From IMG/VR virus record IMGVR_UViG_3300022562_001605, positions 1 through 64,000 of that record: a stretch of 64,000 nt of DNA; one strand, given 5' to 3'. The notes beneath the pieces were generated by a model. The model was not told the origin of the DNA, did no database searches, and worked only from the letters and a program-made list of their open reading frames with translations. Shown here piece after piece: positions 10,545 through 63,751 of this stretch. The position numbers and the translations under genes are program-made. Source of the DNA: a virus. Its lineage: Duplodnaviria; Caudoviricetes. How positions within the stretch are numbered: position 1 is the stretch's first letter; every line of letters begins with the position of its first letter.

Positions 10545-10910
10545 ATGGGTAGAGAAAATGAAGATAAACTATTAAGTTTGGATTTCAAAACTGACACACC
10601 GGTTTTATCAAATGTTGTAATAGTTGATGAATGGTGTTACCACGATGGTACACTTTTTGGTGTTTGTGAAATTAATAAAGAACGCTTTTTTTATATAGAT
10701 GTTATCTATGATATATGGCGATTTTATGATGATAATACACATCAACGACTTTGGGCAATTTATGGCGTTTACGATATAGATATTGGTTTAGCTGAAAAAC
10801 TTTCCGATGCGGGTTCGAACCGTGGGGAGTGGCAAGAAGAAATCCAAGAAAAATCAAATTGTATAGGTATCTTTTGGGATTATGAATATGCTGAAGGGTA
10901 TGAAAGATGA
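10545..10910 (+). CDS. hypothetical protein
   Basis: 121 aa. Confidence 0.6.
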   Translation: MGRENEDKLLSLDFKTDTPVLSNVVIVDEWCYHDGTLFGVCEINKERFFYIDVIYDIWRFYDDNTHQRLWAIYGVYDIDIGLAEKLSDAGSNRGEWQEEIQEKSNCIGIFWDYEYAEGYER

Positions 10911-11064
10911 TTGATAAAAATACTTTTGACGAACATACATTGAAAGCAATAGAAAAACTTAAGAACATTGATAAAACCAAAATTGCTAAAATGACTAAAG
11001 GTATTTTTGATGACGTTGATAATGATATAGGTGAAATTGAAAATACAGATAATGTGGGTGAAAA

Positions 11065-56780: not shown

Positions 56781-57341
56781 TTATTCGGTTCGTAAGAAAT
56801 CTTCTATATTTAGTCCATATTGGAAACTATCAATATCATGAACACCTATTAGGTATAAAACGTATGAAGATACGCTACTTCCGCGCCCTACCCCCCAAAC
56901 AAGGTTCTTTTCTATCAATGTATTTATAATATATATGAGCGTTCTAAGTGTATCAAAAAGCTTCAATTTTCTATAAATTTCTAGTTCTTTAACGCATCTA
57001 AGCTCTCTTTCTTCTATATCGTTCGAACTCCCATCTATTTCAAATAATTTTTCTGCCACATAGGAAATTACGTCCAACGACTTATATTCGTCAGGAATAT
57101 TCCATTCAAATGAACAATCTTGTACGTTTTGTTTTACTAGGATTTGTTCTTTTTTCGGAACATTAGCATTGAACTGCTTTATTTCATTAGTCAATTCTTC
57201 AACAAACAACGAATCTACAGATTTACCTGTCGAAATTCTTTCAATCAAATATTTTGCATTAACTGTAGAATCACCATCAAACCATAAAATTCTATCACTT
57301 AATTTGGTACTATTATGAGAATGAGCTTTCAAATGTTCCAT
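56781..57341 (-). CDS. dnaE: DNA polymerase III alpha (family C) fragment, N-terminal piece
   Basis: R..KELE..WGVGRGSSVSSYVLYLIGVHDIDSFQYGLNIEDFLR; start re-called to ATG 57341. Confidence 0.8.
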   Translation of the reverse strand: MEHLKAHSHNSTKLSDRILWFDGDSTVNAKYLIERISTGKSVDSLFVEELTNEIKQFNANVPKKEQILVKQNVQDCSFEWNIPDEYKSLDVISYVAEKLFEIDGSSNDIEERELRCVKELEIYRKLKLFDTLRTLIYIINTLIEKNLVWGVGRGSSVSSYVLYLIGVHDIDSFQYGLNIEDFLRTE

Positions 57342-57744
57342 TAGTAGTATCAATATCTGGTGTCTTAATTTTTCCACCATTTGCGGCAGGATTTAATAAT
57401 TTCTTAGCCTGTGACGACATTTCAACCGGAGCGCTCATTGGGACGCCACCAGGTACAGGTGGAGCAGGCATAATACCCGGCACCACTGGTTGCGTCATCT
57501 GCGGCATTTGCGTCATCTGCGGATATTGTGGCATCTGCGACAATCCACTATTTCCTACGGTTTGTTTTTCAACGATCTTTTCAACGGGTTTTTCTTCGAT
57601 TATACTATCAATCTTTTCACGAATTAATATCCATTGATCGCGATTGGGACACCAATTGTCCGGTTGTAATTCTTCTACACCTTGTAACCATGCTTTGAAT
57701 TCACGTAATGTTTGTTTTTGCTTTCTTTTCTTTATTTTACTCAT
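57313..57744 (-). CDS. hypothetical protein with PQM low-complexity linker
   Basis: LREFKAWLQGVEE..PNRDQWILIREKI; MPQYPQMTQMPQMTQP. Confidence 0.65.
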   Translation of the reverse strand: MSKIKKRKQKQTLREFKAWLQGVEELQPDNWCPNRDQWILIREKIDSIIEEKPVEKIVEKQTVGNSGLSQMPQYPQMTQMPQMTQPVVPGIMPAPPVPGGVPMSAPVEMSSQAKKLLNPAANGGKIKTPDIDTTNGTFESSFS

Positions 57745-62098: not shown

Positions 62099-62707
62099 CT
62101 ATTGTAAGTCTTTTGCTTCTTTTTGTTTAATTTTAATCATCTTATTAAGACGTTTGCGGATTTCATCTGCTTGTAACCATAAATCTTCACCGCGAAGAAT
62201 TGCGCTGAGTTCATCATCGGTTATAAATGGAACATAATAATCAAAAGCCATTTTTTTGAACCATTTAATGGTGGCTTCCAGTTGCTGATATTGTTCATTA
62301 CCCTTACCATATGTTCCACTACTAAAATTATGAATCATCATCATACTATTTTCGTGAACTAAAAATTCGTCGGCTGCTAAAAATATTAATGAACCTAAAG
62401 AGCAAGCTTCACCTTCAAGGCTACAAACAATATGTGCGGATGAATAGCGCATGGTATTTACCATCTGAACGCCGGTTGTTAAATCACCACCTGGAGTATT
62501 TAAATGTATATAAACTAAATCTTCTTCGGTAGCTGTCCCCATTTTGTGAAACATGTCAACATATGCTTGTGGTTCACGAATTGGACCACTTAAATAAAAA
62601 TGATGTACTTTCCGCATTACTGCTTGTTCATAGTAATGGAAGGGTTTTGTTAATTCATCTTCTTCATCGAGAATATCTACGTTGTCATTGTTTGTTTTTT
62701 TACTCAT
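62099..62707 (-). CDS. clpP: ClpP-like serine protease
   Basis: HLNTPGGDL, ACSLGSLIFLA (catalytic Ser), MMIHN (His), DLWLQADE. Confidence 0.85.
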   Translation of the reverse strand: MSKKTNNDNVDILDEEDELTKPFHYYEQAVMRKVHHFYLSGPIREPQAYVDMFHKMGTATEEDLVYIHLNTPGGDLTTGVQMVNTMRYSSAHIVCSLEGEACSLGSLIFLAADEFLVHENSMMMIHNFSSGTYGKGNEQYQQLEATIKWFKKMAFDYYVPFITDDELSAILRGEDLWLQADEIRKRLNKMIKIKQKEAKDLQ

Positions 62708-62780: not shown

Positions 62781-62912
62781 TTATTTCTTTACGTTTCTGA
62801 ATTCTCGGTATTTTTTCATTGTCCATTCTTGGAACAATTTAGCATATGCTGGCTGCGGAAAATTCCAACCAATGAACATGCCAATAACGAGGATTAATAT
62901 TGTGTCAAGCAT
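62781..62912 (-). CDS. 43 aa membrane microprotein (not in ORF track)
   Basis: GGAGGAG SD, AATAAATA at 62943-62950; MLDTILILVIGMFIGWNFPQPAYAKLFQEW... Confidence 0.7.
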   Translation of the reverse strand: MLDTILILVIGMFIGWNFPQPAYAKLFQEWTMKKYREFRNVKK

Positions 62913-62960
62913 TTTACTACTCCTCCCTGCTTTCGATAAAGATATTTATTGGGGGAGAAT

Positions 62961-62992
62961 AAAAAAGGGGAAATCCTAAGATTTCCCCTTTA
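62961..62992 (-). terminator. intrinsic terminator after tmRNA
   Basis: GGGGAAATC-TTAG-GATTTCCCC followed by a T-run on the minus strand. Confidence 0.85.
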
Positions 62993-62994
62993 AG

Positions 62995-63249
62995 ACTATT
63001 GGGTTACAAGGCGTCACCCCCGGATGGGCTTACGCAGCTAAGCGAAGTTCCTCATCGTAAAATGCGTCGTTTGCATTTATGGTTTTTATGCCATTTTCGG
63101 TGGTCATCTGCCGTATCATCCACTTACCATTCCTTGCCCCGTCGAATCCAGTTCATCCCCAAAATATCGTCAAATTGCCAAAAATTGGTGGAGATGGGGG
63201 TGTCGAAACCCCGTCCGCAACTTGTACTAAGTTCGCTTCATATGATAAT
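62995..63249 (-). ncRNA. ssrA: circularly permuted (two-piece) tmRNA
   Basis: Acceptor piece ends CATCTCCACCA at 63186; 25 nt spacer; coding piece starts GGGGATGAACTGGATTCGAC at 63160; tag ANDAFYDEELRLAA at 63074-63030. Confidence 0.9.
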
Positions 63250-63253
63250 AAAT

Positions 63254-63261
63254 TATTTATT
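63254..63261 (-). promoter_or_regulatory. late-type promoter for tmRNA
   Basis: AATAAATA overlapping the acb1 stop, ~6 nt before the predicted tmRNA start. Confidence 0.6.
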
Positions 63262-63751
63262 CTTCACACCACCATTCTTCAAAAGGTTTATAATATTCTT
63301 CAATTATTTCAATTTCCCCTTCAAAATTAGGAAGATCCTTACACTGCAATCCCCCCACGTTATAAGATAGGGTTATGTGTGGTTTATATTTGTCAAAATC
63401 GTATGTTGCCCCGTGTTCATTCATTAAAAAGTTGTGTCGTTTGACCAGTTCTGGACATTTATATTTTAAAACGAGGCACATATTAACAGTCCCGTCTTTG
63501 GTTGGCTGCGATGGCCATTTTACGAATTTGGTAAAATTACCGATCAGCGGGTTTTCAAATGTACCCGCCGGTTCATAGTCTGGAAGATGCTTTCTACTGA
63601 ATAAAAGTGTGGTGTGAAGACTATCCGTTCTAACCCTATTGGGAATATTATTATCCTTAATATATTTTCTAATTGCTTTTTTGGTTTTTTCGCTAAACTT
63701 TACACCTGCATATGTACCCGTTTCTTTACTAATCGTTTCCATAATTATCAT
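63257..63751 (-). CDS. acb1: anti-CBASS 2H phosphodiesterase (Acb1/T4 gp57B family)
   Basis: GTYAGVKFSEKT, LHTTLLFSR, GATYDFDKYKPHITLSYNVG: two HxT motifs. Confidence 0.88.
   Translation of the reverse strand: MIIMETISKETGTYAGVKFSEKTKKAIRKYIKDNNIPNRVRTDSLHTTLLFSRKHLPDYEPAGTFENPLIGNFTKFVKWPSQPTKDGTVNMCLVLKYKCPELVKRHNFLMNEHGATYDFDKYKPHITLSYNVGGLQCKDLPNFEGEIEIIEEYYKPFEEWWCEE

Follow-up and report, generated by a model that had tools for sequence, protein, structure and literature searches.

Transfer-messenger RNA (tmRNA) is a ribosome-rescue RNA whose gene is circularly permuted in some bacteria, where the RNA consists of two pieces. The bacterial two-piece tmRNAs (Rfam models RF04321, RF01850 and RF01849) have a permuted gene order, an encoded CCA end, a G3-U70 pair, helices between the two pieces, and a tag peptide that starts with AND and ends in LAA. 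The Caulobacter two-piece tmRNA is cited as the functional archetype (Keiler, Shapiro and Williams 2000, via PMC9004378). The same set of features is found at 63247..62964 on the minus strand of the virus record IMGVR_UViG_3300022562_001605 (Duplodnaviria; Caudoviricetes), of which positions 1 to 64,000 were analysed and are referred to here as the window. Judged on its sequence, this locus is very probably a functional, phage-encoded, circularly permuted two-piece tmRNA gene.

Two-piece tmRNAs are already known in phages. Buchholz et al. 2022 found 53 of them in 18,146 phage genomes, mostly marine or aquatic, and Table S1 of that study lists the phage XacN1 as "Permuted" along with Caulobacter, Ruegeria, Stenotrophomonas, and cyanophage examples (PMC9004378). 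The 2025 tmRNA database paper behind RF04321 includes 79 bacteriophage sequences (PMC11915505). Approximately 50 IMG/VR contigs show the permuted layout with the acceptor stem of the window gene alone. The original prediction of the window gene, which was made from the DNA letters, had assumed that phage tmRNAs are one-piece; the published list, which includes the related phage XacN1, shows that this assumption was wrong. One-piece phage tmRNAs are found in the cluster C mycobacteriophages, which resemble the phage studied here in carrying a tmRNA alongside large sets of transfer RNA (tRNA) genes but differ in that their tmRNA is unpermuted.

Melnitz is a T4-like myophage of the Methylophilales/OM43 group. 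Like the window, Melnitz and the pelagimyophages carry a complete permuted tmRNA with a tag frame, and in Melnitz and related phages the tmRNA subtype need not match that of the host (PMC9004378). The Melnitz gene is positioned behind an early promoter, under a glutamine riboswitch, and beside a transcription coactivator (PMC9004378). In contrast, the window tmRNA has a late-type motif and neighbours that encode Acb1 and a ClpP-like protease, and Rfam finds no riboswitch. The phages also differ in size, with Melnitz at 141 kb and the phage described here of a roughly 360-kb jumbo type.

Two Rfam covariance models detect the window gene above threshold. RF04321 (tmRNA_permuted) gives 125.2 bits against a threshold of 47, covers model positions 1-213 of 213, and has an E-value of 4.8e-24. 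RF01850 (beta_tmRNA) gives 94.8 bits against a threshold of 84 and is matched over the full model, including the terminal hairpin. The match is well beyond chance. The original prediction had placed a permuted two-piece tmRNA on the minus strand, and all of the sequence features that it listed are present.

The acceptor piece is approximately 62 nucleotides (nt) long (63186..63247, minus strand). It is composed of the 5' strand of the inter-piece helices, GGAC, the T-arm, the 3' strand of the acceptor stem, and ACCA, and is delimited by the RF04321 alignment, the sequence, and covariation of the T-stem. In the RF04321 alignment, the T-arm is GGGGT-TTCGAC-ACCCC (63212..63197, minus strand). The T-loop has 6 nt rather than 7, and is read as TTCGAC because the 3' strand of the T-stem has to take up the five bases that precede CATCTCC. 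CATCTCC is the 3' acceptor strand (63196..63190, minus strand) and is followed by the encoded ACCA (63189..63186). The CCA end at 63186 is separated from the GGGGATG start at 63160 by a 25-nt spacer (63161..63185, minus strand), which is without an open reading frame (ORF) and is expected to be lost in maturation.

The coding piece is approximately 197 nt long including the terminator (62964..63160, minus strand), as aligned by RF04321 and RF01850. It starts with the 5' acceptor strand GGGGATG (63160..63154, minus strand), which is followed by a D-loop-like AACTGGATTCGAC. The resulting 7-bp acceptor stem GGGGATG/CATCTCC places G3 opposite U70, which is the alanine determinant, and both the discriminator A and the CCA are encoded. 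The 3' strands of the inter-piece helices (GCAA, TAAGT, and ATGATA) run to 63114 on the minus strand and form nested complementary segments with the acceptor piece: TATCAT/ATGATA, ACTTA/TAAGT, and TTGC/GCAA. In the outer helix, ATGATA (63114..63119, minus strand) pairs with TATCAT (63247..63242). A cofold of both pieces returns the acceptor stem, the T-arm, and the outer helix. A short hairpin is placed at 63113..63098, 5' of the resume codon, by the RF01850 alignment; permuted tmRNAs have a pseudoknot in this region.

The tag frame (63030..63074, minus strand), seen in the sequence and in the RF04321 alignment, consists of the resume codon GCA, the peptide ANDAFYDEELRLAA, and the stop codon TAA. 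Its codons are GCA AAC GAC GCA TTT TAC GAT GAG GAA CTT CGC TTA GCT GCG TAA. The C-terminus of the peptide is hydrophobic and rich in Ala, and the resume context AACCAUAAAUGCAAACGA agrees with the Rfam model consensus. The frame is followed by an intrinsic terminator with a 12-bp stem, a 4-nt loop, and a T-run (62964..62991, minus strand), which matches the terminal hairpin of the RF01850 model. Because this strong hairpin is located at 62991..62964, the gene extends approximately 30 nt past 62995, the lower boundary that had been given in the original prediction.

The gene is conserved in related phages. A primase search of IMG/VR returned two close uncultured relatives, L029 and L030, with primases of 77-80% amino acid identity. 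Both carry a permuted tmRNA at the same position (94 and 105.8 bits). The gene order shared by the window, L029, and L030 is Acb1, tmRNA, a 43-amino acid (43-aa) ORF, ClpP-like protease, primase, ORF165, and UvsY. The spacer is 25 nt in the window and 64 and 70 nt in the relatives, and its sequence also varies while the gene order is the same. A spacer that is free to vary is expected of a discarded segment.

Covariation was assessed in a MAFFT alignment of 12 viral tmRNAs, all different and all with the GGGGATG acceptor. Each of the six pairs in the outer helix TATCAT/ATGATA shows compensatory double changes, with 83% of cells paired. Double changes also occur at three of the five T-stem pairs, one of them the closing pair, which is C-G in five copies and U-A in another five. 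The observed covariation score is higher than in any of 500 column shuffles and far above that of slid registers. Since the aligned copies were picked by their acceptor motif, the invariance of the acceptor stem among them carries no information on covariation. The tag peptide is kept through synonymous changes: it is ANDAFYDEELRLAA in the window, ANDAYYGEDLRLAA in L029, AANDAFFEETRLAA in L030, and ANDAFYGEDRLAA in L009. The synonymous codon differences include AAC/AAT, GAC/GAT, GAG/GAA, TTA/CTC/CTA, GCT/GCG, and, at the stop, TAA/TGA.

Variation in the T-loop was also observed. In a set of viral permuted tmRNAs that keep a 5-bp T-stem, the UUCGA-type T-loop is replaced by GGCAGAG, GGCGGAG, or AGGCAGAG. 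The set is composed of the syntenic relative L029 (L029:3810-3835) and L052, L064, L065, L077, L108, L110, L038, L062, and L101.

Several observations weigh against the identification of a functional two-piece tmRNA. ARAGORN gives no call for the window, and none is obtained locally with thresholds lowered to 70%. The single-sequence minimum free energy fold of the precursor is no better than shuffles (z -1.58) and fails to return the tRNA-like domain. In the window the inner helices ACTTA/TAAGT and TTGC/GCAA pair, but across the 12 viral copies their pairing falls to 40-56%, and part of the inner-helix segment in the window can form a local hairpin instead. The octamer AATAAATA upstream of the gene (63254..63261, minus strand) deviates from the T4 late consensus TATAAATA at its first base. 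Lastly, the best subtype model is not constant: it is beta for the window, where the alpha and cyano scores are hidden by Rfam clan competition, alpha for L030 (62.9 bits against a threshold of 50), and none above threshold for L029.

The silence of ARAGORN is a limit of the tool rather than a refutation, because ARAGORN calls the syntenic L030 copy as tmRNA* and misses 13 of the 35 distinct viral permuted tmRNA candidates that were collected. A short spacer was considered as the cause of the miss and is ruled out, as ARAGORN finds the copy on a more distant contig, L002, with a 14-nt spacer. A fold of this kind says little about an RNA that is in two pieces and pseudoknotted. As for the helix that had been predicted to join the pieces, all three segments pair in the window and the outer one covaries, whereas the inner two are poorly paired in the alignment; the two inner helices are plausible. 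In the searched relatives, RF00023 (standard tmRNA) gives sub-threshold, tRNA-like matches only. In the complete relative (G001, IMGVR_UViG_3300021514_000002), a weak partial RF04321 match of 25 bits over model positions 36-95 (T-arm and acceptor) is located at 10881-10928 on the minus strand, inside the tRNA region; this may be a tRNA-like or acceptor-only element.

The change of best model among relatives, together with a bacterial beta example that scores three times as high as the window with RF01850 (285.8 vs 94.8 bits), indicates that the phage RNA belongs cleanly to neither the alpha nor the beta subtype. The 6-nt T-loop that had been noted in the original prediction is real, but it is no mark of a "minimal" RNA, as it is shared by 8 of 28 distinct viral copies and by alpha and beta tmRNAs of bacteria. 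The bacterial pattern is loose and gives many chance matches with unpaired stems, so that only the paired, Rfam-confirmed subset is counted; among the matches listed, a 6-nt T-loop with a Y-R closing pair is present in at least Mesorhizobium loti, Aquamicrobium, and Magnetospirillum (alpha) and in one beta-type locus, with 180-286 bits against the alpha/beta models. The gene had also been described as compact, but its size is not unusual: the RF04321 match is 218 nt for a 213-position model, and shorter spacers of 14 and 18 nt exist. The window tmRNA is a sound annotation of a known gene type, and the claims that it is novel and "minimal" are unsupported.

The octamer AATAAATA overlaps the stop codon of Acb1 and agrees with TATAAATA at seven of eight positions. 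A gp55-type sigma factor reads T4-type late promoters. All three phages (the window, L029, and L030) have an identical ATAAATAA, even though the Acb1 stop overlaps the motif in different frames (GAA|TAA in the window, GAT|AAA|TAA in both relatives), which suggests a DNA signal rather than a coding constraint. The window has 20 ATAAATA sites; 18 are on the minus strand, which bears the genes, and the first 20 kb has none. Nine of these sites precede a co-oriented ORF by 40 nt or less, tail-fibre genes among them, and a tenth (62943..62949) comes before the 43-aa ORF just past the tmRNA terminator. Among 21 7-mers of the same composition, ATAAATA is the rarest and yet has the highest share at gene starts (45% vs 3-23%). 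The exact TATAAATA is not over-represented in the window, with 8 sites vs 12 expected, and a sigma-70 promoter scan finds no site at the tmRNA. There is no terminator between Acb1 and the tmRNA, so read-through from Acb1 is possible.

The late promoter claimed in the original prediction is likely. The seven matching positions, the conservation independent of frame, and the enrichment of ATAAATA at gene starts point to AATAAATA as a plausible T4-type late promoter of the tmRNA, whereas the exact consensus is not enriched. Expression of the tmRNA late in infection is inferred from the motif only. ATAAATA sites are found 6-34 nt upstream of co-oriented ORFs at, for example, 26680, 32725, 41089, 41129, 42163, 48140, 51653, 56091, 61041, and 62943. 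These sites are a candidate late-promoter map of the phage.

The proposed mechanism starts from the sequence features described above, with enzyme assignments and activities modelled on bacterial two-piece tmRNA. Transcription, probably started at the AATAAATA promoter and perhaps also reading through from Acb1, would give one precursor that ends at the terminator at 62964. Two cuts by host tRNA-processing enzymes, one of RNase P type at G1 (63160) and the other close to or at the encoded CCA (63186), would release the 25-nt spacer, which would be discarded. The acceptor piece of approximately 62 nt and the coding piece of approximately 197 nt would be held together by the 7-bp acceptor stem and the inter-piece helices. 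Host alanyl-tRNA synthetase would charge the RNA through G3-U70, and host SmpB would bring the charged RNA to stalled ribosomes. Translation would then resume on GCA, appending ANDAFYDEELRLAA. A C-terminal LAA is a classical ClpX-type degron. The benefit to the phage is probably that ribosomes do not become locked up on damaged or truncated mRNAs when translation is heavy, late in infection. This benefit is in keeping with the extensive translation kit of the lineage, which includes approximately 43 tRNA genes in the complete relative.

The window belongs to a T4-like phage. It encodes rIIA, rIIB, a UvsY-like mediator, a gp41-type helicase, a primase, a clamp loader, and tail fibres, and has a G+C content of approximately 35%. 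By helicase, the closest cultured relatives are the jumbo phages Xoo-sp13 and XacN1 (45%), Stenotrophomonas phages CM1 and RAS14, and Ralstonia phage RsoM2USA; helicase identity to the XacN1/RsoM2USA/Xoo-sp13 group is 42-46%. The source is an uncultured T4-like jumbo phage related to this group. One of the two IMG/VR relatives is a 363.5-kb contig that is rated complete and carries 43 tRNA genes above threshold. Unlike a bacterial two-piece tmRNA, the window copy is viral, and SmpB and ClpX were not found in the genome of this complete relative; the negative covers that genome, and the source phage is represented by the 64-kb window alone. Host factors would therefore be required. A blastn search of the tmRNA region against 50,697 phage records gave zero DNA-level matches. 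An IMG/VR pattern search with a 10-40 nt spacer returned 20 contigs and no close relative, and a ClpP-based locus search returned distant proteases only. Elsewhere in the window, a 199-aa ORF (56781-57380, minus strand) has a short partial match to a DNA polymerase III alpha domain (PF07733, 36 bits). The syntenic block of XacN1 is annotated with a similar small "DNA polymerase III alpha subunit" ORF.

The cultured relatives also carry permuted tmRNAs. RF04321 is above threshold in XacN1 (123 bits, two copies), RsoM2USA (97), and Xoo-sp13 (66); RAS14 has no match above threshold. These tmRNAs come from the same broad phage group as the window copy and have, by eye, a similar 3' domain pattern after the tag. 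They differ in that they are located in or near tRNA regions rather than beside primase and ClpP, and in their acceptor stems, their 7-nt T-loops, and their tags (ANANTFDYALAA in XacN1 and ANDSRYAVAA in RsoM2USA). The jumbo-phage clade may have a single inherited tmRNA that was relocated, or may have made repeated captures. The permuted tmRNAs of XacN1 (AP018399.1 37231-37530 and 356026-356325; L250 and L253), RsoM2USA (MG752970.1 331728-331923; L251), and Xoo-sp13 (MN047793.1 39030-39373; L252) are without an annotated feature in their GenBank records. ARAGORN gives an implausible tag for RsoM2USA, which is read here as ANDSRYAVAA, and misses Xoo-sp13.

The genes on both sides of the tmRNA are on the minus strand. 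Directly upstream is a homologue of Acb1, an anti-CBASS 2H phosphoesterase (63257..63751; Pfam PF23474, 115.9 bits), which is syntenic in L029 and L030. Downstream are an ORF for a 43-aa hydrophobic microprotein (62781..62912), with homologues in L029 (70% identity) and L002 (39%), and a ClpP-like serine protease (62099..62707; PF00574, 55.6 bits; phrog_1827, E 3e-59). The protease gene is approximately 250 nt downstream of the tmRNA, and its Ser and His catalytic motifs align with those of solved ClpP. The trio of tmRNA, microprotein, and ClpP-like protease is also present in L002 (L002:600-1444; ClpP 45% identical), where the flanks are thymidylate kinase, primase-polymerase, and topoisomerase II instead of the gp61-type primase.

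Three other accounts of the gene bear on this reading, and one of them extends the two-piece tmRNA rather than replacing it. The tmRNA and the ClpP-like protease, perhaps with the microprotein, may be expressed together late in infection as a tag-and-degrade unit. Both the RNA that adds the degron and the peptidase would come from the phage, which would borrow host SmpB, alanyl-tRNA synthetase, and the ClpX or ClpA unfoldase, and would itself control the recycling of stalled or selected proteins. The persistence of the trio in L002 hints that tagging and degradation are functionally linked. Its order is kept in the window, L029, L030, and the more distant L002 with its other flanks; still, these four genomes may be one broad clade in which the adjacency is simply inherited gene order, and in XacN1, RsoM2USA, and Xoo-sp13 the tmRNA has other locations, close to or within tRNA regions. 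All copies have a tag with an LAA end, yet the complete relative encodes no ClpX. A second ATAAATA lies upstream of the microprotein and ClpP genes, and the terminator parts these genes from the tmRNA. The protease retains its Ser and His catalytic motifs but could have another job, as its PHROGs relatives include head-maturation proteases. On balance, such a unit is possible but rather unlikely.

The two remaining accounts concern the role of the phage RNA. Instead of just raising the capacity for rescue, it could mainly displace or inhibit host tmRNA-SmpB, or redirect tagging with a phage-specific tag. A tmRNA-like RNA of mycobacteriophage DS6A that lacks a coding sequence is reported to inhibit endogenous tmRNA, as described in PMC11915505. 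Because the complete relative encodes no SmpB, the phage RNA must compete for that of the host; in addition, the middle of the tag, AFYDEEL, is unlike typical bacterial tags such as ANDERFALAA and ANDNYAEARLAA, and the T-arm is unusual, with a replaced T-loop in L029. A pure decoy would have no need of a tag frame, a resume context AACCAUAAAUGCAAACGA, and an LAA end that are intact and under purifying selection, and the 6-nt T-loop is also found in working bacterial types, which makes a competitor or decoy improbable. It is far less probable still that the gene is a host-derived passenger, either captured recently from a host or left behind by integration at a tmRNA gene, without a role in the phage. 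Integration at tmRNA genes is common among temperate phages, and fragments of these genes are carried along (PMC9004378), but the window holds the whole gene rather than a 3' fragment, the phage is of the lytic, T4-like kind, and one site is kept in diverged phage genomes with compensatory and synonymous changes. The bacterial loci that were retrieved resemble the phage gene only over the approximately 33-nt T-arm and acceptor end, and no donor lineage was found among them. Xanthomonas and Ralstonia, the hosts of cultured relatives, have a one-piece tmRNA. The completeness of the gene and the lytic T4 type of the phage led to the rejection of a prophage attachment-site remnant, and the compensatory and synonymous changes to that of a pseudogene. 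A functional two-piece tmRNA of the phage is the preferred reading.

The known architecture and distribution of tmRNA are unchanged by this finding, and its main value is correct annotation. ARAGORN is the usual tool for phage genomes. Because it misses the window gene as well as roughly one in three of the similar viral copies collected, ARAGORN-based surveys undercount phage tmRNAs; the newer model RF04321 fixes this. The conserved adjacency to the ClpP-like protease is the only lead worth testing, and, if the tag-and-degrade unit were true, it would be a virus-run pathway for protein quality control or amino acid recycling. The window and its relatives add a jumbo-phage clade in which a predicted two-piece tmRNA is kept at a fixed site by a ClpP-like protease, behind a putative late-type promoter. 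This clade provides a concrete, testable case for the question of why lytic phages carry ribosome-rescue RNAs.

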